A DNA stretch of 64,000 nt from an uncultured Candidatus Micrarchaeota archaeon (GCA_963723105.1 CAVRPK010000001.1:208543-272542); one strand, 5' to 3'; shown: positions 3,658 to 52,777, numbered from the stretch's first letter. Translations and numbers: made by a program. Notes: generated by a model from the letters alone, not told the origin.

Positions 3658-5046
3658 TCATCCACCTACTGGAGGCCTCACTCTAACTGGAACAGTTATG
3701 ACACAAGTTTCGTTAGGCGCTCCGGTTGTAACACCGCTTAGATTAAGACCAGTAACTTGAATTACATTTGCTGATGAAGGGCACCCTTGACCGCCGCAAG
3801 ATGCATTTGCACCAAGTAAAGTTGGCACACCAGATGTATCTACGCTTACAGATACAGAAACATCAATTGCAACGCTTGAGACTCCAAGTGCGCTTCTAAG
3901 TTGTCCACCGTTGCCTGTAATAGTGCTTGTGATTCTCTGGACCAGTGTCCCCATACCAGGAACACGATTACCAGGACATGAAGTTACTTTTGTTGGTTGA
4001 ACATCCTCGCATTCACATGAGGTCGTACAGCGTTCTCCAGTACCACATCCAGATGGAGTTGCCGTAGGATCACATTCTTCGCCTGGTTGAATTCTTCCAT
4101 TTCCGCAAACAACAGGATCATCTACAGCAACAGGTGGAGGCGCTGATTTAATGACACAACGGCAAGATCTTGTACAAACCTTGCTAGTTCCGCATGCTAC
4201 TCTTCCAGCTTTGCTGCTTCGATCACATTGTTCTCCTGCAGCTTTATCCCAACTGCCATTTCCACAATTTTGTGGTGGTGGAGGTGCGCATGCTTCAAGA
4301 TTTGGACATGCACAGGGAACTAAGCTTTCAGGGGTACATAGTGGATGTGTTTCTGAAACTGCACAAACAGCTTCATCGTAGTTGACATCTATACGATAAT
4401 CATTATCATCAAGTGAAACAGTTGCAGGATTTGCATGCATCTGCTCGATCTCAGAAGAAGTCCTCCATCTTTCGAATTGAATTGCAGTATCGCCAGTCAT
4501 TCTTATTCTTGAGGTTTTAAGAATTTCATTGCTTCCATCTTCTGCGCGTTCTGCACATGGATGATCAGCAACTTTTTGTATTTGACAATCTGGAGAATTT
4601 TCATCTTCAAGTGGAAGTTTGATTGGTCTCTCTTGATCTGGTGCCCAGCTTCCATCTTCTGCTCTTTTAACATAGTGACTCATAAGATCTGGCACTGGAC
4701 GTCCTTCGCGATCCCTAAGCTTTGCCCGTTCGCTTTGATCATCGCATTGATCATTTCCACGATGGCAATCTTCAAATGAGAAATATGGATTGAATTCTAA
4801 ACACTTGCCATCTTCACTTCTTTTTTGAGTGCCATTGGGATTGAAATTGCATTCATATGCTTCTACTTCCATACAAACACCATCTCCTCGGATTGGCTCT
4901 ACTATTGGCCGAGTTGTATCACATTCTTTTGCAAATAGGAATAAACTAATTCCAGCAACCATAACTGCCGTAGTTGCAATTGATGATGCGTTATTCTTGA
5001 ATTTTCCAAGAGCTCTTTCCTTTAATGATTTTTTTCTAACTTTCAT
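3658..5046 (-). CDS. cassette A exported Cys-rich protein 1 (N-terminal TM anchor, CGNG...E[EQ]CD repeats)
   Basis: Start moved to ATG 5046 (MKVRKKSLKE), 5 nt after AGGTGA. TM anchor IATTAVMVAGISLFLFA. Two CGNG-x6-8-GE[EQ]CD units (CGNGSWDKAAGEQCD, CGNGRIQPGEECD). The C-terminal ~100 aa are shared with 2714-3652 and 7094-8026. Confidence 0.65.
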   Translation of the reverse strand: MKVRKKSLKERALGKFKNNASSIATTAVMVAGISLFLFAKECDTTRPIVEPIRGDGVCMEVEAYECNFNPNGTQKRSEDGKCLEFNPYFSFEDCHRGNDQCDDQSERAKLRDREGRPVPDLMSHYVKRAEDGSWAPDQERPIKLPLEDENSPDCQIQKVADHPCAERAEDGSNEILKTSRIRMTGDTAIQFERWRTSSEIEQMHANPATVSLDDNDYRIDVNYDEAVCAVSETHPLCTPESLVPCACPNLEACAPPPPQNCGNGSWDKAAGEQCDRSSKAGRVACGTSKVCTRSCRCVIKSAPPPVAVDDPVVCGNGRIQPGEECDPTATPSGCGTGERCTTSCECEDVQPTKVTSCPGNRVPGMGTLVQRITSTITGNGGQLRSALGVSSVAIDVSVSVSVDTSGVPTLLGANASCGGQGCPSSANVIQVTGLNLSGVTTGAPNETCVITVPVRVRPPVGG

Positions 5047-5051
5047 AAATG

Positions 5052-6968
5052 TCACCTTGTTTGTATTCCGCTTTCTGCTAGTATGAGTGCATAATCATCT
5101 TCAAGATCTGCAATAAATTGTCTTTGCTGATCTGATGGAACAGAAGTTTCATATTTGATATCTGAAAGTCTTTCTCGAAGTGCACGGTTTTTGTACGCCC
5201 CGCCATCTTTTTCAAATACTTCCGCCATTTTTCTAGAAAATAATTTATCTGAGAGTAAAAGTGCTTTGAGTTGTGTTTTTCTTCGTTCTGGATGATCGAT
5301 ATAAACTACAAGTTGAGCAAGTCTTTTTCCAACTACCACTCTCTCAACCTGATCAATAACAGTTGGAAGTTCTCTTCGGACCCTTTCATCAAGCCTCGCA
5401 TCATCCATAAGATCATTCCAAATGATTTCATGTCTGAATAAGACATCAACAACATCAAAAAGTACTTCATCGGTTTTCATAACTGATTTGATATTTGCAA
5501 GCTGAAGACCAAGATCAGTGGATGTTCTTTTGATCTGCGTGAATCTTTGCACAATATAATCGCATGCTTCCTCTTCTTCTTTGGAAAGATCAGAACGTCT
5601 TTGCAAACGAACAAGTTCTTTTGTAACTTTTCTTCTTCGAATAAGCTCTGTTGCTGCAAGAGTAAGTGCAAGTATTCCATAAGGAATTGCCTTATCTGAA
5701 TGTTCTGGAAGCTCGAATGTCGGAAGATGAAGTGTTTGTACCCAGAGTTTTGTAAATCCATTTAGCATTGTTTGATAAGCGCCAGTTAGATGTGCTGCAG
5801 TAGAGAAACCACCAACACTAAAAACTGCCCAAGTCATTGGACTTGAAATCCTGTTTTTGAACCATCCTTTGAAAGACCATTTAGGTTCTTGTTTTTGTGG
5901 ACTTGAAGTAGACTTTGGAACTTCCAGAAGTACTGGCTCTTGAGGTTCCTGAACAATACTTTGAGGCTCTTCAACATTATTTGGTTTACCTGGAATAGTA
6001 GCCTTGGAATCTTTTTGCGAAAGTTCAAGTGAAGGAACTGCAGGCATATCAGAAGTTCGCACACTTCTCATTTCATCCTGAATAACATTTGCTTGAGAGT
6101 GTTGTTTTGCTGCCTTTCCATATGCAGTAACCAGCCCTCTTAAAATAAGTAATCGATTAACGTAAATTTCCTGAGGCTCCATCTCAGATTCGTTCTTTTT
6201 TGATTTTACAGATTCTTCAATTGTACTGAGCCTGGCCTCGCCAAATCGAGCAACAAGTTTTTTGACTTCTGCTGCATAGCGAACTTTTCCGCGCTCGAAT
6301 TTTTCTTTTGAGGAATCAGCTGAGTCCCTAAGACCATTGATAAAATCAGAAAGATCTCCTGTAGCCAGAGTAAATTCTCCACCTTCAACTACGCTTGTTG
6401 GCTGATGTGAAACTGGACCATTGTCAACTACCCTGCCCATAGATGGAGGCAGAGGAGGCGACCGTGAACGTTTTTTAGGAGGAGGGGGTGGTGGAGGGAT
6501 AGAACGCCTTCTTTTCAAGTCAGGCACTGGAGGAGGCTTGGGTTTGTTTTGCTGCCCATTTACCATCCTTGTAGCATCCTCTTGTACAGGAGATGATTGT
6601 GCAGGCTTTATTTCGAATAAAGGACCAAGAAGATCTCGCTGTGCAAGTACAACTCCAAGTTCTAGAAGATGGCTGAATAATTGCTGTGAGTTTGAAACGT
6701 TGTTTGCAGCACATTCTGATCTTGCAAATTCAAGAAGAACTCCGGCATCCATTTCAAAAAGTTGTTCTTGACTAGGTACTGGAGAATTTTGACCAATATC
6801 CTGAGGAGGAGGAGCATCTAAAACAGGGATTACACTACTTGTTGGTTTTTGTGGCTTGGATCTTAAAGTTTCAACAGCCCCATCTTTATTGAATATGCTT
6901 GTTGCTTCTGATTGGGCCCTCTCAAGTTTTTGCCTTCGCTCCTCTCTACTAAGTCGTTTTTTTGCCAT
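5052..6968 (-). CDS. cassette A TM-hairpin scaffold protein (basic N-module, Pro-rich region, helical cytoplasmic C-domain)
   Basis: Start at ATG 6968 (MAKKRLSREERRQKLERAQ...). The N-terminal ~35 aa and the two-helix TM hairpin are paralogous to 8036-9208. Contains a PPPPPPPKKRSRSPPLPP tract. Confidence 0.65.
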   Translation of the reverse strand: MAKKRLSREERRQKLERAQSEATSIFNKDGAVETLRSKPQKPTSSVIPVLDAPPPQDIGQNSPVPSQEQLFEMDAGVLLEFARSECAANNVSNSQQLFSHLLELGVVLAQRDLLGPLFEIKPAQSSPVQEDATRMVNGQQNKPKPPPVPDLKRRRSIPPPPPPPKKRSRSPPLPPSMGRVVDNGPVSHQPTSVVEGGEFTLATGDLSDFINGLRDSADSSKEKFERGKVRYAAEVKKLVARFGEARLSTIEESVKSKKNESEMEPQEIYVNRLLILRGLVTAYGKAAKQHSQANVIQDEMRSVRTSDMPAVPSLELSQKDSKATIPGKPNNVEEPQSIVQEPQEPVLLEVPKSTSSPQKQEPKWSFKGWFKNRISSPMTWAVFSVGGFSTAAHLTGAYQTMLNGFTKLWVQTLHLPTFELPEHSDKAIPYGILALTLAATELIRRRKVTKELVRLQRRSDLSKEEEEACDYIVQRFTQIKRTSTDLGLQLANIKSVMKTDEVLFDVVDVLFRHEIIWNDLMDDARLDERVRRELPTVIDQVERVVVGKRLAQLVVYIDHPERRKTQLKALLLSDKLFSRKMAEVFEKDGGAYKNRALRERLSDIKYETSVPSDQQRQFIADLEDDYALILAESGIQTR

Positions 6969-7093
6969 TACACCCACTCAATAATATGTTTGAATATATA
7001 TAATTTTGTGGGAACTGTTTTTAAATGTGTTGTTTTAGAAAAAAAGATGTAAAGAAAAGGGATATTTTATAAGATTAAAAAATATAAAAAAAA

Positions 7094-8026
7094 TTATCTA
7101 AGTTTCACAGGTATAGAAAGAGTACATGATGATTCTGCACCAGCAACAGTTACTCCAGCAAGTGATAAACCAGCAACGCTAGCTGGATTTATACTATTTG
7201 GACATCCTTGTCCTCCGCAACTTGCTGAAGAACCTGCCAATGTAGGAACACCAGAAGAGCTAATTCTTACAGAGACCACAACTGTGACTGGAACAGATCC
7301 AACACCAGCTGCGCTCTTAATAGCACCACTGCTGGAAGAAATTGAAGATGAAACTCTGCTAATCAAATCACCTGCACCAGATCTAACACCAGCACCACAT
7401 GGGCCGCCAGGTGTTTCCCTTGGTGGCCTGACTGCTACCCCTGTTCCTGCGCCTTTAGCTGGAGTTCTTGCAGATCCAGCTCCCCTTGCGTTGCCACCTT
7501 TAGTTGGGCAATCGGCTTCACAATAATTATCAGAGGATACTCTGCATGATTCAGCAGGAATTGTTTTAGTTCCAAGTGCATAAGTGGCATTTTCACCTGT
7601 TCCGGTTTGAACAATTGCACCATAAACTTTAGCACGATTTTGAACCTTACCATCACCGCAAGTAAAATCAACAGGACAGTTTTCTACTGTTTCAAAGGAT
7701 TGTCTGATTCCATCACCGCAGAATCCGCAGCTTTCTGGATCCCAGTTTTCAGAAACCACATCGTGTTCTCCTTTTGTAAGTTCACAATTATTATCGCCTA
7801 CTGCTGGTTCTGCAGCACAGGTAACTGCTGTTGGACACTCTGGAGGAGGCGTTATTGGACCTTCTGTTTGTGGTCCGCAGCTTCTGAAAAATAATGTTGC
7901 AACCATTGCTGCAGTTGCAAGACCTGCTCCTGCTCCAAATTTCCATCCAAGGCGTTTTGCCTTGCTCTTTTTATCATCAACTCTGCTAGATGCAGGACTT
8001 CCGACTGTTTGTTTTTGTTCTGCCAT
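7094..8026 (-). CDS. cassette B exported Cys-rich protein (N-terminal TM anchor)
   Basis: Start at ATG 8026 (MAEQKQTV), 4 nt after GGTGAT. TM anchor GAGAGLATAAMVATLFF. Motifs WDPESCGFCGDGIRQ and ENCPVDFTCGDGKVQ. C-terminal SASCGGQGCPNSINPASVAGLSLAGVTVAGAESSC is nearly identical in pattern to 3658-5046. Confidence 0.65.
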   Translation of the reverse strand: MAEQKQTVGSPASSRVDDKKSKAKRLGWKFGAGAGLATAAMVATLFFRSCGPQTEGPITPPPECPTAVTCAAEPAVGDNNCELTKGEHDVVSENWDPESCGFCGDGIRQSFETVENCPVDFTCGDGKVQNRAKVYGAIVQTGTGENATYALGTKTIPAESCRVSSDNYCEADCPTKGGNARGAGSARTPAKGAGTGVAVRPPRETPGGPCGAGVRSGAGDLISRVSSSISSSSGAIKSAAGVGSVPVTVVVSVRISSSGVPTLAGSSASCGGQGCPNSINPASVAGLSLAGVTVAGAESSCTLSIPVKLR

Positions 8027-11319: not shown

Positions 11320-14300
11320 TCATGATAAATCCTCCGAATCAGAGCCTAAAGCCAAAGTTACATACTTCTTATCAGCAGAATACCTGTCCAAGACCACGGT
11401 TTTGTCATCATTATGTCCTTTGATCTGCTCGGAATCCGAACCATTGGATGGATCTGGAGGAATTGATGAGGTATATCTTCCTTTTTGTTTCCTTGATTCT
11501 GCAAGTCTTAGCATAGCATGACCAGCATCATCCAAATCAGGACATTGATCAATTAATCCGACTATTTCCTTGTCCAATATAAGATCGCTGATTCCGTCAG
11601 AAGATAAAAAGTCTACATCCCCATCGACTAATTTGAATCCATTAATATCAATAAATGTTGAAACAGTACCAAGTGCAGAAACAATAACATTGGTTGGGAA
11701 CTTCCCATTCGGCTCATGTCCCAGTGACTTCATCATATAAGCCATGTTATGAATTGGACATTGGAAAACAACTTCTCTATCTCGAATAATTTTGTATTCG
11801 CTATCACCAGCATGGATCCCATAGAACTGATTCCCAATTCTGAGAGTAATAGTTGCAGTTGTGCCCATATCATTTTCCTGATTTGTGCTTTTTGGATCGC
11901 GTTTCTTTGAAATTTGCTCAAAGACTACAGCCAGATCAGCAATAACAACTGCACGGCGCGCTTCTTCAGGAGTCTGAATCCAGCCTGCGCTTGCACAAAG
12001 TTCTACTGTTTCCCTTGCAACAGTGCTTGCAATCTGGCCATTGCTCATGTACCCAGGAACAGTACCCTTCATAGTGTCGTGTCCACCCATGCCATCAAAT
12101 ACTGCCTTCAAACGAATAACCTGGCCTGTTGACAAAGTGATCTCTACGCCAGTAAAACAATCATCATTTGTCTCGCAGTAGTCATCAGTGACATGCAATC
12201 TTTTTCTGCCATTATCACCATCAACCTGAAGTGTTTGGAATTTAGGAGCAGTAAGCCCTGCAACTTTAACAAAATCTACCTTTACTGCAAGTCTTGGGCC
12301 TCCTAGAAATTCTAGTAGAATATTAAATTCTTCATTCTTGGACACTGTATCCCTAAGGTTTTTTGGATCGCCTGCAATTTCAAAAAGTCTCAAAAGCTGA
12401 GGATAATACTCTTTACTATCTTCACTATCGCCAGCATATGTTTTGTTCAAAATCGCACTACCAAAAGCACTGATATTATCTTGAGGAATTTCTGCAATAG
12501 GTTTTTCATAAATTGCTTCGAGTATTTTTGTATCTGCTTCAGCATAACTCATTGGTTTAACAAATCTTAAACGATGGGCAAAATCAGAAACAGAAAACAT
12601 GTTCACAGAACCGTTCATCCATTGCCTTTGTCTTTGCTCTTTTGTTGAAGTGAACCATTTGTATGCAAATGCATTCAATATGGAATATTCGTTAGCATCC
12701 CTCCAGAAATATGCATTGCGTCTTAGTTTTTTTCTAAATGTAGTAACAGCTTCAATATTTACAAAGTCCTGCGAAGTCATTTGACTGGGATCCTTATTTA
12801 GAATAAATGAAAGAATCATGAGATTTTCTGATGAAAGTCGATGATATGGTGAAGCTTTTGATGTGACCATGGATTGGGAAAGTGAAATGATATTGAAATC
12901 ATCGAGCAAAGTTTGTTCCCAGTAACTCAGCAGCTCTGCAGGTTCTCCTCTGGTCCAAATTCCAAAACCAGTAATGTGTTTTCCAGTAACTTCAGAAGCC
13001 TGAATTCCAAAAAGACCTGCAACCATGTCTCTTTGAACTGGAGAAAGGTTTGCAGGATTTGTTATTGCACGCTCCTTTTCGTCTGGAGATGGCAGCTTAA
13101 GTGAAAACGTTTGGTATAGTGAGGCTTTGGCTTCCCGAAATGCCTTAAGGTTGGCTTTGAAATCTTCATGAGGCCAAACTGAGGCAATGTAGTTCTGCAT
13201 ACGAAGCTCACGAACTCCAGGATCCATTGTTCTGAACTTTTCAAGATCATCTGCAGTGCAATCGGTTTGATAGAGTGCTTTTGTAATCAGAATTTTTTGA
13301 TGAGGTTGCAACCTTTGGAAAATGGTTTGATCGTCTTCTACAGGTGGCTGGTCAAATACGGAAGATATTGGCTCTGCAGCCTGCGGTGGCTGCAGCGGCT
13401 CTGGAACAACTGCCGGACGTGCCTGGACTGATGGTGGAACTTGATCTGGAAGCATTGCAGTTGATTTCTGGCCAGATGCTTCCTCGCTTGCATTAACAAG
13501 ACCTACTGCAAGAGGAATAAGATTTGAAAGTTCTGGATTGTCCTTAAGTGATTCAACTGCCTTGGCATAAACAGGTGGAATTGATGGATCGACTGGAGAG
13601 CCAGAGCGGACAGTGAGTAGCATTTGAACTTGTTCTGCGGATTTTGTGTACTCTGAATTAAGACCAAGATAAAGGATCAAGGTTCTCGCAACTCTTCTTA
13701 TGTTAACATTTCTAGGACTTTCTACTCCACCAATCTTACGGGGGAAACTTTGATTCAGAGCTTTTTCAAGATCATCATTAATACCAACGTTTGGAAGATC
13801 GAAAACCAATTCTGCTGAAACATCTTCAGAAACTTTTGATGGAGGTGGAGTTGTTGGAGCTTCTGATGGAAGCTCTAGCCATCCCATAACTATTTTGTTT
13901 GAAGGAGTAACCTCCGGATGAGTAATCCGTTCACTTGAGGGAACAGCAGGTTCATCAAATTCAGCTCCTACATCAATTTCTACACCTTCTGGCCAATCTA
14001 CTTCAGTTGGATGGGGTTCAGGAGCACCAGCTTCTCCTAAAACTGCTTCAAGCGGAGTTCCGGGTTTGCTTCCTTTATCAGTGCGCTCAGAGTCAATCCA
14101 TTGATGAAGATCAAATTCAGGTTCAGTAGTTTCTTCATCCAGACTTAAGTCTGGCACAGGTTGAACTAACTGAACTTCGCGCGCTTCAACATCCGCAGCT
14201 TCAACAGGAGGCTCAAAATGAAGATCATCCAAAGGATCAGCACTTGGTTCTTCAGAAGGCTCACGTAGTTCAGCTACTTGCATTCCATCAAGATATGCAA

Positions 14301-16260
14301 TCGAAGGAGCCTCCCATCCAGTTACAAGATGAACACGACTTGTGTTTGGATCAACAGAAAATTCAAAATATAATGCATCCTGAGTTATCTCATCTGAAAG
14401 ATCAGGATCATCAAAAGCAATGATAAGCTTTGTATCCTGATCATAATAACCGCAAATTTCTTCTGGAAGAGTTCCATTGCCCCATCCACCCATAACATGA
14501 TTTCTGAAAATAGCAGGCCCGTTCTTGAGCAAAATCAATGCATTTTCAAGAGTTTCTGAAGAAGGCAATTCATCTTCAAAATGAGTAGTAATGAAAGACG
14601 GATCTGTTGATTTCATAGTATCTAAAACCGCTTCATATTCAACTCGCTCTACTGGAGTAGGAAATTCTGGATAGACATCAGAAATCATTCCCATTCCATG
14701 GGATATGCTTACAAGTGTTTTTGCCATTCGCACAGTACCAGCATGGGAATAGTCATGACGCAATGATGCAACAGATTTTTTGTAAACATCAGGAACATCC
14801 TTGTATGAGATATTGGAAAGTGAATATGTTTTCAGAGTTCTTGCCACTCTTTTGATTAGCTGGGAGTTTCGAACATCGGACCCTGGAAGGAGTGATTCAA
14901 ATTCAGCATCATAATCTTCAACATGTGGGAATGGAAATGAAAAATCAAGTCTTGATTTTGGTGGAGATGATGCCCGAACCGGAGATGATTTAGAAATGGG
15001 AGGAGGGCGTTCAGTGGAAATTGCCTTGTATGATGCTCGCATCTCATCAATAACATCCAGTGCAAGTTGAAGTTCGCTATATTTGGAACCGTGTAGTTCT
15101 ACTAATTGGGCAAGGCGTTTTACTTTTGATGATGTAAGTGAAGAGGAAATGCGTTCAGCTTTTACTGCTCCGTGATATTCGGCTAGAGTCTCAATTGCAG
15201 CCTCAAGATCCTCAACTGCAACAGGTATTGCTAGTTCTTCGAGTAGTTCCAGAGGCTTGGACATCAGCTCTTTAATGTGATCATTGAGAGCTTCAATTTC
15301 TAAGGAAACTTTCAAAGCAGCATCCAATCTTGGAGTATGTTTTAGTTGAGTCATGCGTCTTTCAACAAAACCCTCTTTTGTTAGATCACCAGAAACAGGA
15401 TTTTGTAGCCGGTATTCGTAAATGTCAAGCACGTCTCTGGCATTTGAATAATCAGTAAGAACTTGGGCTCTGGCAGATTCATCAAGGATCTGTGGAATTC
15501 TGGATTCAATCCAGCGCAAATCAGGAAGCAATTCCAGTGCGAGAGTAAATGGAGCAGTTTTGGAATTATCTTCCTTTAGTGCCTTTTTAAAAATCGGAAG
15601 TCCGATGTACATGAAATTAAGTGGTGGTACCGATGCCACACCTCCTTTGCTATCTTCTGAATTCGGATCAGCCTGGTGATATAGAAGCATATCATTTGCC
15701 GATTCAATATCAGCTTTTGCCGAAGCACGCAATTCTTCAACAGATACTTCAGACGAAGATCTGGATAATTCAATAAAATGGAGATTGAGATCAAGTTCTT
15801 CAAAAGCAATTTTAAGCTCTGTTGAGCGATCAGATTTTATTGCAGCTTTTTTGAAATTTGGATTTGCAAGAATATTCATTAGAAGACGTTCTTTTTGTGG
15901 AGTTACTGTATCAGGTATTGGAGCATCAGGATTTGCAGCCATTTTTTCAGCTTCAATGACCAGACCAATTGCAAATGTACGCTGCTGATCACTATAATCT
16001 CTGCCAGGTAATTGAGGATGAGTATGTCTAAAATCACCACCTGGACGCGATACGATATTTGTCTCGTTTTCAAGTTCAGGAGATGTTGAAAATTTGATTA
16101 TAGAAATTTTTGGAGCTTCAAAATAATACTGTACTGGAAAGGATCTTCTGATTAAAGATCTTGCAGTTGCTTCAGGAGAGGTGATCCGGGACCTTAAACT
16201 TCTCAGAGATACATTTGGTTTAGTTGGAAAATTGCCGGTTGATGAGTTCCTCTCGCCCAA
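11320..16260 (-). CDS. giant (~1646 aa) cytoplasmic protein with C-terminal PP2C (PPM) Ser/Thr phosphatase domain
   Basis: The C-terminal ~300 aa carry PPM motifs AVFDGMGGHD, GTTATITL...GIHAGDSEY, LSSDGISDLI, DDKTVVL. No TM segment. Internal repeat I[KR]RVARTL. Start set to TTG 16260..16258, 4 nt after GGTGA. The longer track ORF (to 16410) runs into a tRNA gene. Confidence 0.75.
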   Translation of the reverse strand: MGERNSSTGNFPTKPNVSLRSLRSRITSPEATARSLIRRSFPVQYYFEAPKISIIKFSTSPELENETNIVSRPGGDFRHTHPQLPGRDYSDQQRTFAIGLVIEAEKMAANPDAPIPDTVTPQKERLLMNILANPNFKKAAIKSDRSTELKIAFEELDLNLHFIELSRSSSEVSVEELRASAKADIESANDMLLYHQADPNSEDSKGGVASVPPLNFMYIGLPIFKKALKEDNSKTAPFTLALELLPDLRWIESRIPQILDESARAQVLTDYSNARDVLDIYEYRLQNPVSGDLTKEGFVERRMTQLKHTPRLDAALKVSLEIEALNDHIKELMSKPLELLEELAIPVAVEDLEAAIETLAEYHGAVKAERISSSLTSSKVKRLAQLVELHGSKYSELQLALDVIDEMRASYKAISTERPPPISKSSPVRASSPPKSRLDFSFPFPHVEDYDAEFESLLPGSDVRNSQLIKRVARTLKTYSLSNISYKDVPDVYKKSVASLRHDYSHAGTVRMAKTLVSISHGMGMISDVYPEFPTPVERVEYEAVLDTMKSTDPSFITTHFEDELPSSETLENALILLKNGPAIFRNHVMGGWGNGTLPEEICGYYDQDTKLIIAFDDPDLSDEITQDALYFEFSVDPNTSRVHLVTGWEAPSIAYLDGMQVAELREPSEEPSADPLDDLHFEPPVEAADVEAREVQLVQPVPDLSLDEETTEPEFDLHQWIDSERTDKGSKPGTPLEAVLGEAGAPEPHPTEVDWPEGVEIDVGAEFDEPAVPSSERITHPEVTPSNKIVMGWLELPSEAPTTPPPSKVSEDVSAELVFDLPNVGINDDLEKALNQSFPRKIGGVESPRNVNIRRVARTLILYLGLNSEYTKSAEQVQMLLTVRSGSPVDPSIPPVYAKAVESLKDNPELSNLIPLAVGLVNASEEASGQKSTAMLPDQVPPSVQARPAVVPEPLQPPQAAEPISSVFDQPPVEDDQTIFQRLQPHQKILITKALYQTDCTADDLEKFRTMDPGVRELRMQNYIASVWPHEDFKANLKAFREAKASLYQTFSLKLPSPDEKERAITNPANLSPVQRDMVAGLFGIQASEVTGKHITGFGIWTRGEPAELLSYWEQTLLDDFNIISLSQSMVTSKASPYHRLSSENLMILSFILNKDPSQMTSQDFVNIEAVTTFRKKLRRNAYFWRDANEYSILNAFAYKWFTSTKEQRQRQWMNGSVNMFSVSDFAHRLRFVKPMSYAEADTKILEAIYEKPIAEIPQDNISAFGSAILNKTYAGDSEDSKEYYPQLLRLFEIAGDPKNLRDTVSKNEEFNILLEFLGGPRLAVKVDFVKVAGLTAPKFQTLQVDGDNGRKRLHVTDDYCETNDDCFTGVEITLSTGQVIRLKAVFDGMGGHDTMKGTVPGYMSNGQIASTVARETVELCASAGWIQTPEEARRAVVIADLAVVFEQISKKRDPKSTNQENDMGTTATITLRIGNQFYGIHAGDSEYKIIRDREVVFQCPIHNMAYMMKSLGHEPNGKFPTNVIVSALGTVSTFIDINGFKLVDGDVDFLSSDGISDLILDKEIVGLIDQCPDLDDAGHAMLRLAESRKQKGRYTSSIPPDPSNGSDSEQIKGHNDDKTVVLDRYSADKKYVTLALGSDSEDLS

Positions 16261-16274
16261 TGAATCACCTGTTT
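16260..16274 (-). promoter_or_regulatory. SD/initiation cassette AAACAGGTGATTCAT in front of the PP2C giant gene
   Basis: Minus-strand GAAACAGGTGATTCATTGGGCG. 15 nt identical to 9210-9224. Preceded by a TATA-like gtatatatgtatag. Confidence 0.5.
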
Positions 16275-16392
16275 CTATACATATATACTTGTGTAAGTAG
16301 GATTTATAAACCGTTGTGTGTATTTGTGCCCACAACTGTATTAACATTAAACTGCAGGGTTTTTCAATATTTCTCAAAGGAACAATAATGGT

Positions 16393-16580
16393 GGGCTTGT
16401 AGCTCAGCAAACTTTTGGAAAAAGTTTGATCAAAACTGACTTACTAAAAGTTCGAGCAATAGTAGAGCGCTCCGTTCGCAAAAACTTTTTGGAAATGTCC
16501 AAAAAATTTAGGAAATCGGAGAGGCCGGGGGTGCGACAGCTATAAATTTGATAAAATAGCCGCAGATCCCCCCAAGTCCA
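16393..16580 (+). tRNA. tRNA-Ala(CGC) gene interrupted by three insertions (D-loop, anticodon loop 37/38, T-loop)
   Basis: All four stems pair perfectly across the insertions. Acceptor GGGCUUG/CAAGUCC with G3:U70 and discriminator A. D stem GCUC (16402-05)/GAGC (16465-68). Anticodon stem CUCCG (16470-74)/CGGAG (16517-21) with loop UUCGCA. T stem GGGGG (16527-31)/CCCCC (16568-72). The spliced model is 75 nt. Confidence 0.7.
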
Positions 16581-16646
16581 TATTTCCCAAGAAGGGAATT
16601 GGTTTATATTGATTTTGTAGCACTTTTGATTCAAACTGATGATTCT

Positions 16647-19448: not shown

Positions 19449-21077
19449 ATGCAAAGATTTCGGTCCAGGGCAAATAGGGGAATGGATCTGAGAAGGCCTC
19501 AGAGAAATTTCCAGCAAATTCAGCAGAGCCAGGACCCAATAGTTAGCACTATAGTAAGAGGAAGGCCAGAAGGAGGAGCACGTAAAAGCTATAGGGTAGT
19601 TGATATTCTTGGAAAGGGTGGAATGGGCAGTGTTTATCTTGCATATGATGAAAAAGGAGAAAAAGTTGCACTAAAGCTAAGCAACGCATCTATTACTGAC
19701 GGCGATTCCGCATCACGTTTTTTCAGAGAGATTAAATCTAATTTAAGGATAAAACACCCGAATGTTATCCGTACTCTTGATTACGAATTATACAAAGAAC
19801 AGCCATTTTGCATTATAGAATTTCTTGATGGACAAGATCTTGCAGAGGAATTGAAGGGAAATGACGGAGCATTGAGTTGGGATGAAGTAAAACCATATCT
19901 CATGCAACTTTGCGATGGACTTGGAGCAGCACATGCCAGAGGCATTATACACAGAGACCTCAAGCCAGGAAACATATTCATAACAAAAGAAGGAGTAGTT
20001 AAAATACTTGATTTTGGACTTGCAAAAAGATTAACAAACGGAAAAGAGGAAGTCACTGTTGGTGATGATCTTACACGAGAAGGAACGATAATGGGAACAT
20101 TCAACTACATGGCACCAGAGCAAACACTTGGAAAAAAAGATGGGTATGATCATAGAGCAGATTTATACTCAGTTGGAATTATCATGTACAAGCTTCTTAC
20201 TGGAGATGTTCCATTCAAAGGAGAAAACATCTTAGAGTTGATTGAAAGTATCAAAAATGATGCACCAAAGCGTCCTAGTGAAATGAAACCAGATGCAAAC
20301 ATCACTCCAGGAATTGAAGCAGTAATTCTAAAGGCAATCAGAAAAGATCCCAGAGACAGATTCCAAAATGCAGCAGAGCTAAAGGCAGCTATTATGGATA
20401 CTGAGGTATTTTCAGATCAGCTTGAAAACCTTATGTTGCTTCATACAAGAGAAAGTACAATCAGGCCGTCAATGCATCCTGAACCAAAAACAATGCCAGA
20501 GAGACCAGACAGTAGGCAGATACCAACAGAAAAAGTTGTTCCAGAAAGACCAGCAACCATAGTCAGTAATTTGGGCAAAGAAACAGGGGGATTAAGAGAC
20601 GAAGAAACTCCACAAGTAAAAACAGGCAGCTGGCTCAAAAGGACCATAGTAGTAGGAGCACTTGCTGCCATGGTTGGAGCTGGATATTATTATAGAAATG
20701 AAATAATACCTAGAATTGAGCCTGTCATAGACCAAATTCAAAGACTAGGGGAAGGTAGACAAGAACCAGTACAACAGCCAGTTCAATCAGTAAATTTCAG
20801 GGCAAGAATTGAAACAACTCCAACTGGCGCAGATGTATTTATTGAGAAAAACAGAAGATTCCACAGAATAGGAAACACGGAAAATCCACTTGAGCTGATG
20901 CTTGAGAGAAAAGAACACAGGCTAGTTATTAGAAAAAGAGGATATAGAGACAAGAGGATAACAATTTCACCAGATGAGGCTACAGCTTCGATAAAACTTA
21001 GTCCAGTGAGAAGACGACAAAGAAGATCTGCCATAAATATTGATGAAACTGAAATAGAAGCAGAAGAGGATAATTAA
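19449..21077 (+). CDS. Hanks-type Ser/Thr protein kinase with TM segment and PEGA-like C-terminal domain
   Basis: GKGGMGSVY, VALKL, HRDLKPGN, DFGLA, APE. TM segment IVVGALAAMVGAGYYY. C-terminal TPTGADVFIEKN...LVIRKRGYRDKRITISP resembles a PEGA domain. Confidence 0.85.
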   Translation: MQRFRSRANRGMDLRRPQRNFQQIQQSQDPIVSTIVRGRPEGGARKSYRVVDILGKGGMGSVYLAYDEKGEKVALKLSNASITDGDSASRFFREIKSNLRIKHPNVIRTLDYELYKEQPFCIIEFLDGQDLAEELKGNDGALSWDEVKPYLMQLCDGLGAAHARGIIHRDLKPGNIFITKEGVVKILDFGLAKRLTNGKEEVTVGDDLTREGTIMGTFNYMAPEQTLGKKDGYDHRADLYSVGIIMYKLLTGDVPFKGENILELIESIKNDAPKRPSEMKPDANITPGIEAVILKAIRKDPRDRFQNAAELKAAIMDTEVFSDQLENLMLLHTRESTIRPSMHPEPKTMPERPDSRQIPTEKVVPERPATIVSNLGKETGGLRDEETPQVKTGSWLKRTIVVGALAAMVGAGYYYRNEIIPRIEPVIDQIQRLGEGRQEPVQQPVQSVNFRARIETTPTGADVFIEKNRRFHRIGNTENPLELMLERKEHRLVIRKRGYRDKRITISPDEATASIKLSPVRRRQRRSAINIDETEIEAEEDN

Positions 21078-45480: not shown

Positions 45481-45747
45481 GAGGTGAGGGACATAGTCTG
45501 CCTTTTGTGTTCAGGTAGCATTTGACTACCACAAAAATCATTACTGATTTTTGGGCCCATTGACCGGTTTACCGGTCAATTGGGAGCGGCGCAAAGGCCT
45601 TGCTCCGTCATTGGATAATAGAACACTCGTTTCAACCCCGAAGGGTATCGTTTCTGTACTGCTCTACTGGCCCTTAAAGCCAAATATCCTCATGGAGGGC
45701 AGAACTTCCTCACTTTTGCAAGCGTGAGCTACCTGCCCCTCACCCAG
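45481..45747 (-). ncRNA. rnpB: RNase P RNA (compact archaeal form)
   Basis: ORF-free, GC-enriched stretch. P1 pairs 5' GGUGAGGG with 3' CCCUCACC. CR-I-like GAGGAAGUUCUGCCCUCCAU. CR-V-like ACACAAAAGGCAGACUAU. P4 pairing UCUGCC/GGCAGA. GGAGCAAGGCC block as in bacterial M1 RNA. A T-run (CUUCUUUUU) directly follows the 3' end. Confidence 0.7.
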
Positions 45748-49427: not shown

Positions 49428-50498
49428 TCACCTAGTCAGCTTCCCAATTGCATCAAGAGCAGTATCAATATCCTCAATCTTGAAGTTGCCCATATGTGCA
49501 ATGCGAAGACCGCTTTCTTTGAAAGCTCCTCGAGCGCCGACAATTTTTATCTCATATTCTGAATCTAGTTTTGATTTGACATCTGATGCCAGAATGCCTT
49601 TGGGGCATATGAATCCAGTAACAGTATTTGATTCAAAACCAGGCTCTGCAATGATTGGAAGACCCATTTCAACTAATCTCTCTCGAACATGAGCTGCAGT
49701 TTCAGCATGGCGTTTGATGCAAGAATCAAGTCCACCAGTTCGATCAATAACATCAAATGCCTTCTGAAGTGCCCAAAACAGGGTAACTGCAGGAGTGTTT
49801 GGAGTTTGTTTGTCTTTCTCAAACCTCTTTTTATGCCTTCGAAGATCAGCATAGTAGCTTGGAATATAATCCCTTGAACTGAATTTTTCAATAGCATCAG
49901 AACTCAATCCAAGAAGTGCCATTCCAGGAGGAGCTGCTGTTCCCTTCTGACTTCCAGTTACAAATGCATCAACATTGAAGTCTTTCATATCGAGTTTAGT
50001 TCCTGGCCAAGCAGAAATTCCATCAATAATAGTGAGCATTCCTTTGGATTTCGCATAGGTGCAGATTTCTTTTATGTGATTGGTAACTCCTAGGCTCGTT
50101 TCATTGTGAACCATTGCAAGAACATCAGCTTCGCTGCTATCTATTGCTTCTTTTGTTCTCTCAAGATTCCAGCCTTTCCCATCCTCGATTTCATGGACAA
50201 TTGCACTAGAGTGCACCTTGACAGTAAGGACCTGCTTTTTTCCAAAATCACCATTTGGAAAACAAACTACAGAGTCTTCTTTTTTACACAGATTAAGAGT
50301 AAGTGTTTCAAGACCAAGTGCGCCAGAGCCTGTGAGCACGTATGCCTCTTCGCAGTTGAAATAACATGTGAGACGAGCTACAAGATCGCCGTATAATTCA
50401 GTCATGGCTTTGCTTCTGTGGGTAATCATTTCCTTTGTTTGTGCCTGAGATATTTCATCAAGCAAAGGTACTGGACCTGGAGAGAGTAATATTCCCAT
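49428..50498 (-). CDS. class V PLP aminotransferase (serine-pyruvate/alanine-glyoxylate type)
   Basis: 356 aa. HNETSLGV, DAFVTGSQKGTAAPPG (PLP lysine). Confidence 0.7.
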   Translation of the reverse strand: MGILLSPGPVPLLDEISQAQTKEMITHRSKAMTELYGDLVARLTCYFNCEEAYVLTGSGALGLETLTLNLCKKEDSVVCFPNGDFGKKQVLTVKVHSSAIVHEIEDGKGWNLERTKEAIDSSEADVLAMVHNETSLGVTNHIKEICTYAKSKGMLTIIDGISAWPGTKLDMKDFNVDAFVTGSQKGTAAPPGMALLGLSSDAIEKFSSRDYIPSYYADLRRHKKRFEKDKQTPNTPAVTLFWALQKAFDVIDRTGGLDSCIKRHAETAAHVRERLVEMGLPIIAEPGFESNTVTGFICPKGILASDVKSKLDSEYEIKIVGARGAFKESGLRIAHMGNFKIEDIDTALDAIGKLTR

Positions 50499-50531
50499 AA
50501 TGATAGATTAGAAGAAAATAATTAAAAGAAG

Positions 50532-52705: not shown

Positions 52706-52777
52706 TGCGACCGCCGGGAATCGAACCCGGGCCTCGAACTTGGCAAGCTCGAATCATAACCATTAGACAACGGTCGC
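52706..52777 (-). tRNA. tRNA-Gly(GCC)
   Basis: GCGACCGUUGUCUAAUGGUUAUGAUUCGAGCUUGCCAAGUUCGAGGCCCGGGUUCGAUUCCCGGCGGUCGCA. 7-bp acceptor stem, anticodon loop UUGCCAA, T arm CCGGG-UUCGAUU-CCCGG. No encoded CCA. Confidence 0.9.

Follow-up and report, generated by a model that had tools for sequence, protein, structure and literature searches.

A tRNA-Ala(CGC) gene with three probable introns in Micrarchaeota, and the intron family to which two of them appear to belong

In ARMAN-2 (Candidatus Micrarchaeum acidiphilum), 56% of tRNA genes are disrupted by introns at positions that include 59/60 (PMC3239211), and the precursor of tRNA-Pro(GGG) carries two introns in its T loop (Fujishima et al. 2011, PMC3239211). 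The epsilon2-type splicing endonuclease (EndA) of this organism, for which structures are available (PMC3488258, PMC12397907), cleaves both strict and relaxed bulge-helix-bulge (BHB) motifs in vitro (PMC3239211, PMC12397907). In Thermoproteales, three introns per gene and intron transposition have been documented (PMC4090602, PMC4033280, PMC8450103), and some BHB motifs form only after another intron has been removed (Sugahara et al. 2007/2008 and Fujishima et al. 2010, via PMC4090602, PMC4033280). The tRNA-Thr(GGU) gene of Caldiarchaeum subterraneum varies in intron number and has a 5′ tRNA fragment upstream (Sugahara et al. 2012, PMC3293823). The stated maximum is three introns per archaeal tRNA gene (PMC8450103, PMC4033280, PMC3239211), and how archaeal tRNA introns spread is described as unknown (PMC4090602, PMC5829648). 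Here we analyze a tRNA-Ala(CGC) gene located in a stretch of 64,000 nucleotides (nt) from an uncultured Candidatus Micrarchaeota archaeon (GCA_963723105.1, CAVRPK010000001.1:208543-272542). This whole stretch is called the window, and positions are counted from its first nucleotide; homologous and otherwise matching loci are designated by L numbers.

Positions 16393-16580 (+) of the window very probably constitute a functional tRNA-Ala(CGC) gene of a Micrarchaeota (DPANN) archaeon, with three introns that would be removed by a splicing endonuclease. Multi-intron tRNA genes are already known, with precedents in ARMAN-2 and Thermoproteales, and the lineage is likewise a known one. The locus shares with ARMAN-2 its phylum, noncanonical intron positions including 59/60, a mixture of strict (hBHBh′) and relaxed motifs, the occurrence of several introns per gene, and a failure to be recognized by standard finders. 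However, its host belongs to a different, nonacidophilic clade of Micrarchaeota (the closest metagenome-assembled genome, or MAG, is ‘Modern_marine.mb.41’), three introns reside in one gene, and the D-loop intron uses an intronic decoy of the D stem. Moreover, a family of sequence-related introns is present here, of which we found no mention for ARMAN-2 in the parts of PMC3239211 that were considered. As in Thermoproteales, there are up to three BHB introns per gene, and similar introns occupy different positions and different tRNA genes. Unlike in Thermoproteales, the host is a DPANN rather than a TACK archaeon and presumably has a different type of endonuclease, apparently paralogous introns lie within the same gene, and their palindromic hairpin+GATCAAAAC module sometimes has inverted repeats and occurs in either orientation.

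The canonical strict-BHB intron at 37/38, a substrate of alpha4 and alpha′2 EndA enzymes, resembles intron 2 of this gene in its 3-nt bulges and in the pairing of the anticodon loop with the 3′ end of the intron. It differs in that the central helix of intron 2 has three of four pairs, and introns 1 and 3 interrupt loops other than the anticodon loop. The likeness to Caldiarchaeum is that intron number differs between close genomes and that 5′ fragments lie upstream, in the form of relic exon-1 copies in two homologous loci (L004, L008). In Caldiarchaeum a 1.8-kb recombinase-encoding element separates the fragment from the gene, whereas in the present loci the distance is tens of bases, and no recombinase was seen adjoining the relics.

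The gene is composed of exons of 15, 21, 22 and 14 nt separated by introns at 15/16, 37/38 and 59/60, all on the plus strand. Exon 1 (16393..16407, tRNA positions 1-15) supplies the 5′ strand of the acceptor stem (GGGCUUG), U8 and A9, the 5′ strand of the D stem (GCUC), and A14 and G15. Intron 1 (16408..16459), of 52 nt, interrupts the D loop at 15/16 with a relaxed BHB of the HBh′ type. Exon 2 (16460..16480, positions 16-37) completes the D loop (UAGUA) and continues with the 3′ strand of the D stem (GAGC), G26, the 5′ strand of the anticodon stem (CUCCG), and the loop sequence UUCGCA. Intron 2 (16481..16515), of 35 nt, is at the canonical 37/38 site and has a relaxed BHB; its junction is ambiguous by one A. 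Exon 3 (16516..16537, positions 38-59) comprises U38, the 3′ strand of the anticodon stem (CGGAG), the variable loop AGGCC, the 5′ strand of the T stem (GGGGG), and the T-loop sequence UGCGAC. Intron 3 (16538..16566), of 29 nt, interrupts the T loop at 59/60 with a strict hBHBh′ motif, and exon 4 (16567..16580, positions 60-73) ends the gene with U60, the 3′ strands of the T stem (CCCCC) and acceptor stem (CAAGUCC), and the discriminator A73.

The predicted exon junctions are 16407/16460 (GCUCAG joined to UAGUAGAGC), 16480/16516 (UUCGCA to UCGGAG) and 16537/16567 (UGCGAC to UCCCCC), and the spliced product is 72 nt long, with the D loop AGUAGUA, the T loop UGCGACU and the anticodon CGC (16477-16479). 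Alanine identity elements are present in the form of this anticodon, the pair G16395:U16577 (G3:U70), and A73 at 16580. CCA is not encoded at the 3′ end. The exons have a G+C content of 65% and the introns one of 23-31%, with that of the window being about 39-40%. The gene sits in a 250-bp gap that separates a giant minus-strand PP2C-like open reading frame (ORF; called start 16347) from the plus-strand genes secF-secD. A TATA-like A+T-rich stretch, TTTTTCAATATTT (16360..16372, +), lies 21-33 nt upstream and is the same in a close relative (L002), with no strong consensus across homologues; it is a possible archaeal promoter. An ORF at 16404..16634 (-) across the locus and a TTG-extended start of the giant ORF are mechanical, and no gene is called in this interval in L001 and L002.

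No RNA gene is called on the unspliced locus by ARAGORN or Rfam. The sole Rfam match at E ≤ 10 is to the long noncoding RNA KCNQ1OT1_3, which is meaningless. There is likewise no match at E ≤ 10 to a group I or group II intron, and the inserts measure 29-52 nt, compared with hundreds of nt for such introns. Genes of this kind are missed by routine annotation, and DPANN genomes therefore seem to lack tRNAs that they actually encode. The 72-nt product adopts a perfect cloverleaf at minimum energy (−31.2 kcal/mol), and an intronless gene from another Micrarchaeota genome (L032) is identical to it at 72 of 72 positions. When compared with the Rfam tRNA model RF00005, the L032 gene scores 64.9 bits (E 2.8e-12; threshold 29).

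A prediction made from the window’s sequence alone, hereafter the original prediction, had described a tRNA-Ala(CGC) interrupted by three inserts, with four perfect stems and G3:U70 once these are removed. Both statements hold, and the anticodon-loop insert had been placed exactly. The T-loop insert had been given its correct length of 29 nt in a register off by one (16537-16565, leaving UGCGAAU rather than UGCGACU). The D-loop insert had been put at about 49 nt within a duplicated AGCAA, which would leave a 10-nt D loop and a mature length of 75 nt; BHB geometry and comparison with intronless homologues instead place this insert at 16408-16459.

A functional tRNA produced from the original junctions, 75 nt long with the D loop AGCAAUAGUA and the T loop UGCGAAU, does have some merits. 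ARAGORN accepts it as tRNA-Ala(CGC) with four perfect stems, and the same T loop is found in intronless homologues such as L019. Nonetheless, this alternative is highly improbable. The D loop is 7 nt long in all 43 homologues and never 10 nt, and the AGCAA duplication does not exist in L002, the relative with a 97% identical SecF, which has AGTGA on the 5′ side and must give the same tRNA. At those junctions, a check of registers by hand gave no 4-bp helix with 3-nt bulges; neither the original D-loop junctions nor the real D stem used as an outer helix yields pairing. Conversely, applying the BHB rule returns the intronless sequences exactly in L014 and L032.

Archaeal splicing follows a rule in which two 3-nt bulges on opposite strands are separated by 4 bp and each is cut after its second nucleotide. 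As a check, the rule was found to recover both the canonical 37/38 junction and the intronless homologous sequences. A BHB-type motif can be formed at all three junctions, as the original prediction had asked to be verified; that of the T loop is strict, and those of the anticodon and D loops are relaxed. In the intron 3 motif, the T stem GGGGG/CCCCC leads into the 4-bp helix UGCG (16532-16535)/CGCA (16561-16564), flanked by the bulges ACA (16536-16538) and GAU (16565-16567) and by the inner helix GCUAU/AUAGC. The central helix of intron 2 consists of U32-A16513, U33·G16512 and C34-G16511, with G35 and A16510 mismatched; its bulges are C36 A37/A and A A/U38 (the slash marking the cut), and its inner helix comprises AAA/UUU plus 8 bp.

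The intron 1 motif is built differently. Its central helix pairs the 5′ strand of the D stem, GCUC (16402-16405), with GAGC (16454..16457, +), an intronic decoy of the 3′ strand of the D stem. The 5′ bulge A14 G15/C places the cut after 16407, and L002 departs from the window right after AG; the 3′ bulge is A A/U (16458-16460). An inner helix is formed by 16410-16420 and 16441-16452, and there is no outer helix. The same architecture is present in L002, L048, L043, L014 and L016, and the pattern G(A/G)G(C/A) followed by A(A/G) at the decoy site is kept in all seven 15/16 introns examined.

Folded without constraints, the 188-nt precursor has a minimum energy of −58.7 kcal/mol (z = −4.6 relative to shuffles), and this fold already contains the D-loop and T-loop motifs. 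A fully splice-competent conformer is found at −52.9 kcal/mol, which is 5.8 kcal/mol above the minimum. If the known archaeal pathway operates, a broad-specificity EndA would make six cuts and the ligase RtcB would join the exons, with the real D stem forming only once intron 1 is out. CCA would then be added, and alanyl-tRNA synthetase would charge the tRNA through G3:U70.

Comparative evidence comes from relatives in which the gene is syntenic, lying between the PP2C-like giant ORF and secF with 0, 1 or 3 introns. SecF and SecD assign the host to Candidatus Micrarchaeota, the source of the SecF homologues, in agreement with DPANN/ARMAN archaea, one of the groups for which the original prediction had cited such introns. 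The closest SecF proteins, at 97% identity, belong to the MAGs GCA_018822695.1 and GCA_018812625.1 (‘Modern_marine.mb.41’), and other Micrarchaeota matches range from 80% down to 60%. The loci with 97% identical SecF (L002/L003) have the same three introns, with introns 2 and 3 identical to those of the window and an intron 1 of 109 nt. At 80% SecF identity, L004 has only a 17-nt intron at 37/38, and L008-L012 are intronless genes of 72 nt. Single introns at 15/16 are found in L014 (SecF 76%, 182 nt) and L016 (SecF 75%, 43 nt), and removal of the L014 intron by the BHB rule gives exactly the intronless consensus D loop AGCAGCA.

Additional homologues were collected by scanning one genome per species for the exact 21-mer TCGGAGAGGCCGGGGGTGCGA. 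Among the 42 matching stretches, 41 are labelled Micrarchaeota, ainarchaeum, Bilamarchaeum or ‘archaeon’. The remaining match (L054, 3048-3068) lies on a contig of a Coraliomargarita (bacterial) MAG and has no recognizable tRNA-Ala exons upstream; it is probably due to chance, with about 0.3 chance matches expected for the collection. The 43 nonredundant loci comprise 13 genes without introns, 18 with one, seven with two, four with three and one with four, and intron removal by the same rule gives 72 nt in every case. The products differ only at loop positions 16, 20 and 59 and by compensatory pairs, namely 5:68 and 6:67 (U:A to C:G) and 11:24 (C:G to A:U in L005).

The junction helices are also maintained by compensatory change. 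In a small alignment of ten sequences at 59/60, 93.6% of cells are paired, compared with 50-63% in slid controls, and all five inner-helix pairs have changed on both sides. A corresponding alignment of six sequences at 15/16 has 90.3% of cells paired, compared with 35-57% in slid controls, and four pairs changed on both sides. The covariation score was reached by none of 500 shuffles in either case; because the register of these alignments was set from the junction rule, the slid controls are the fairer comparison. At 37/38, all 25 homologous introns have three or four of the four central pairs, and the G35×A mismatch of the window recurs in L028, L046 and L052.

Several observations weigh against a functional, spliced gene. 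The anticodon BHB has its G35×A mismatch and three of four central pairs, and the 3′ site of the D loop adjoins the central helix within otherwise unpaired RNA, so that both would need an enzyme of relaxed specificity. Within the 64-kb window, no EndA or RtcB gene was found by tblastn with Methanocaldococcus jannaschii EndA (a query verified against PDB 1a79; best E = 1.9) or by Pfam scans of 18 ORFs. The search for another tRNA-Ala(CGC), called for by the original prediction, gave one match per genome to the 21-mer TCGGAGAGGCCGGGGGTGCGA, the 97% relative included, but this support for a single copy is limited to exact matches of a 21-mer in the incomplete MAG of the relative and to 64 kb of the organism’s own genome. 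GCG is the rarest alanine codon (5.2% of alanine codons in 30 ORFs) and could in principle be read by tRNA-Ala(UGC), such that selection on the gene could be weak. Finally, the genome scan demanded UGCGA, making conservation of G55 within the scan set partly circular.

Some of these points would suit a decaying or dead tRNA-Ala(CGC) copy, in which insertions have piled up while a rare codon is served by tRNA-Ala(UGC). Two of the three BHB motifs are relaxed, A18/G55 deviates from the universal G18/U55 combination, and the D stem of the related L016 contains a C11×U24 mismatch. We regard decay as improbable, since the exons are identical to an intronless gene of another species, all stems are perfect with G3:U70 and A73 intact, stem changes over 43 loci are compensatory only, and the BHB helices covary. 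Moreover, the 21-mer has no second copy in the genome of the 97% relative, A18/G55 is shared with tRNA-Ala(UGC) across the phylum, and distant species also have genes that combine three or four introns with intact exons (L037, L048 and L043). Broken stems, lost identity elements and exon divergence from orthologues, which are signs of a pseudogene, were not found; the exons equal those of L032 and L002. Of the two possibilities left by the original prediction, a functional multi-intron tRNA and a decaying copy, the former is thus supported by the BHB motifs, the identity to L032 and the conservation of A18/G55.

The latter feature concerns the elbow of the tRNA. An Rfam alignment of the 7-nt D loop places A at position 18 and G at position 19, such that G19:C56 is kept and the 18-55 combination is A/G rather than G/Ψ. 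The tRNA-Ala(CGC) therefore lacks the canonical G18 and U55, and the original prediction was right that both partners deviate. A18/G55 is present in all loci fetched through SecF, a set chosen without the UGCGA pattern. It is also present in the tRNA-Ala(UGC) genes of seven loci (L019, L021, L022, L029, L031, L045 and L058), which were found independently of that pattern and have the T loop UGCGAAU and the D loop AGCAGYA. Neighboring tRNAs for Trp, Ser, Met and Thr have the normal GG and UUCRAAU sequences, as does the tRNA-Gly of the window. Judging from these alignments, A18/G55 is a conserved trait of both tRNA-Ala isoacceptors in Micrarchaeota and not a mark of decay, and it looks like a lineage- and isotype-specific change of the tertiary pair. 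The tRNA-Gly(GCC) gene (52706-52777, -) is intronless, has canonical D and T loops, and is the sole tRNA in the window found by standard tools.

The search for endonucleases also produced some side observations. A weak tblastn match of M. jannaschii EndA at 50336-50500 falls within a class-V aminotransferase and was discarded. When the catalytic unit of the ARMAN-2 epsilon2 enzyme, rebuilt from a PDB alignment, was used as a query, 47 proteins mostly of 180-218 amino acids were found, none of which is tied to this genome. Among metagenomic proteins of family PF01974, a group of 180-218 amino acids (P0121-P0150) has a catalytic unit that shares 56-79% identity with its counterpart in the three-unit ARMAN-2 enzyme, and some of these proteins are on long contigs and therefore are not truncated gene calls. 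Their sequences suggest that they are stand-alone relatives of the epsilon2 catalytic unit.

Introns 1 and 2 resemble each other in sequence. Two copies of the motif AAACTTTT(N0-2)GGAAA are present in the 64-kb window, both within this gene, when 0.10 occurrences are expected and none of 100 shuffles reached two. One copy (AAACTTTTGGAAA, 16409..16421, +) begins a hairpin+GATCAAAAC unit that spans 16408-16439 in intron 1. The other (AAACTTTTTGGAAA, 16482..16495, +) is in intron 2 and aligns with 37/38 introns of the same family, such as those of L052 and L028. No further copies of the module are present in the window. The D-loop and anticodon introns belong to one family, with the form AAACTTTT..GGAAAAAGTTT.ATCAAAA. 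The common origin proposed for the two inserts by the original prediction is strongly supported by homologous introns elsewhere.

Nucleotides 16408-16439 are identical at 32 of 32 positions to nucleotides 2-33 of the anticodon-loop intron of L035. Over its full length, intron 1 can be aligned to anticodon-loop introns of the same gene in L042, L059 and L025, and it also aligns with L027 and L036. The 109-nt D-loop intron of L002 similarly matches 111-nt anticodon introns of L046 and L048, and in L048 the 15/16 and the 37/38 introns are both members of the family. The 35-nt anticodon intron of the window is a shortened member of the family that resembles those of L052 and L028. At its 3′ end, the D-loop copy reads GUUC GAGC AA and mimics a D-stem strand, where anticodon copies read GUUC CGAG AU and pair with the anticodon loop. 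We infer that introns 1 and 2 are paralogues and that both belong to a palindromic hairpin+GATCAAAAC family widespread in Micrarchaeota tRNA genes, and that the D-loop copy is a relocated paralogue of the 37/38 intron of other species. A K-loop or box C/D element in intron 1 (UGAUCA..CUGA, 16427-16439, with a 3-bp stem) was considered and rejected; L025 and L027 lack GA/CUGA, and the stem is not preserved in L035 or L042.

A metagenome scan for the hairpin module yielded at least 31 family-like copies, some of which were assigned to tRNA genes by hand-splicing and ARAGORN. Explicit hand-spliced constructs were preferred, as brute-force deletion combined with ARAGORN was noisy on metagenome matches. 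The module resides in 37/38 introns of tRNA-Ile(GAU) genes in forward (L065) and reverse (L144) orientation, of tRNA-Arg(CCU) (L129), and of tRNA-Asn(GUU) (L118), a gene that has a second intron at 15/16 and whose neighboring protein has its best matches in Micrarchaeota. It is also found in a 59/60 intron of tRNA-Arg(UCG) (L156), in a variable-arm intron of tRNA-Leu(GAG) (L079), and in an intron of tRNA-Ser(CGA) (L093). On two metagenome contigs, GTTTTTGATC plus the hairpin is not intronic and abuts the 5′ end of tRNA-Ser(GGA) (L077) or tRNA-Ile(GAU) (L173), and some copies among the matches listed lie away from any tRNA exon. In L035 and L026, the long anticodon introns carry terminal inverted repeats that are identical at 21 of 25 and 24 of 28 positions. 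A different repeat containing CCCAAACCCGCAAACTTTTTGGGAAAAAGTTTGACAAAAAC, found several times per contig outside tRNA genes in L100, L106, L110 and L158 (contigs Ga0123355_*), has the same hairpin as the intron family with a TTGACA-type tail.

Two orientations cannot come from reverse splicing at the RNA level, which makes a DNA-level mobile element the likelier source. Tentatively, and without favoring the idea over its negation, we propose that introns 1 and 2 might derive from a mobile palindromic element, similar to miniature inverted-repeat transposable elements, that colonizes tRNA genes throughout Micrarchaeota. No transposase could be linked to the module and no target duplication was established. 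If the proposal is true, copies would persist wherever an insert can reach the splicing endonuclease as a BHB, in an archaeal counterpart of eukaryotic ‘introners’.

The inverted repeats, the two orientations and the copies outside tRNA exons, along with the indel inside intron 1 that separates the window from L002, might instead suggest that the three inserts are recent mobile DNA that is not removed from the RNA, and that the gene has been newly inactivated. This possibility is remote. Every insert sits exactly at a BHB, and junction helices are kept by compensation among species whose SecF proteins are only 62-80% identical. Furthermore, many species would not retain unspliced inserts at these three sites while keeping their exons intact. 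The window and L002 are identical over about 310 aligned bases except inside intron 1 (window 16408-16459, L002 3716-3824), where there are clustered substitutions and a 57-nt indel that carries two extra hairpins. This pattern suggests replacement or recombination rather than point mutation, by exchange between intron copies.

Loci related by SecF also contain relic copies of exon positions 1-13 (GGGCTTGTAGCTC), one or two of which lie directly upstream of intronless or one-intron alleles (L008 2735-2839 and 2912-2951, the same in L009-L012; L004 about 3755-3861). Each is joined to a hairpin, ATTGAACGG..CCGTTCAAT, that is also present in the D-loop intron of L002 and in the tRNA-Asn D-loop intron of L118 and that includes 11 nt identical to tRNA positions 24-34. 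L008 also has a 3′ relic (..CAAGTCCA) downstream of the gene. These copies may have been left behind when introns were lost or when an element integrated.

The locus and its 43 homologues represent a phylogenetically dense case of intron turnover at one orthologous gene, and the palindromic module, with its two orientations and inverted-repeat forms, offers a concrete sequence for the question of intron spread. If a mobile element is indeed involved, this tRNA-Ala(CGC) series would capture the mechanism by which archaeal tRNA introns are gained and lost. The series ranges from zero to four introns, has the same element at 15/16 as well as at 37/38 and in opposite orientations in tRNA-Ile genes, and shows relic copies of exon 1 next to intronless alleles and, between near-identical genomes, an indel confined to an intron. 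The four-intron gene is in L043 (JBDRIM010000054.1, about 6530-7100), where the D loop is interrupted by two BHB introns, at 15/16 (79 nt) and at a second site, and two more such introns lie at 37/38 (88 nt) and 59/60 (about 139 nt). Because the CAGC/GCUG central helix of the intron at this second site bridges the first splice junction, splicing must be ordered. In the parts of the cited archaeal tRNA intron literature that were considered, we found no description of a D-stem decoy helix, a module with inverted repeats and both orientations, a conserved A18/G55 in tRNA-Ala, or a four-intron gene. The conserved elbow and the four-intron relative are small extensions of the documented range.

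Among the surrounding genes, the minus-strand ORF at 11320-16347 encodes a 1675-amino-acid protein that matches PP2C only weakly, at its C terminus. It and a gene for a Ser/Thr kinase at 19449-21077 (+) flank the tRNA-secF-secD block. This arrangement is kept in L002, L004, L014 and L016 (SecF 75-97%). In L005 (SecF 79%), the same flanking genes are present, but a 551-amino-acid ORF lies between the tRNA gene and secF. Elsewhere, the window carries genes typical of an archaeal chromosome, such as those for the thermosome, SRP54, an ATP-dependent DNA ligase, NurA, Nre and an M17 aminopeptidase. Positions 45482-45745 (-) match the whole length of the archaeal RNase P RNA model at 67.5 bits (E 1.4e-16), which is below the Rfam gathering score of 84. 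On the strength of this match, the region is probably the RNase P RNA gene of the organism.

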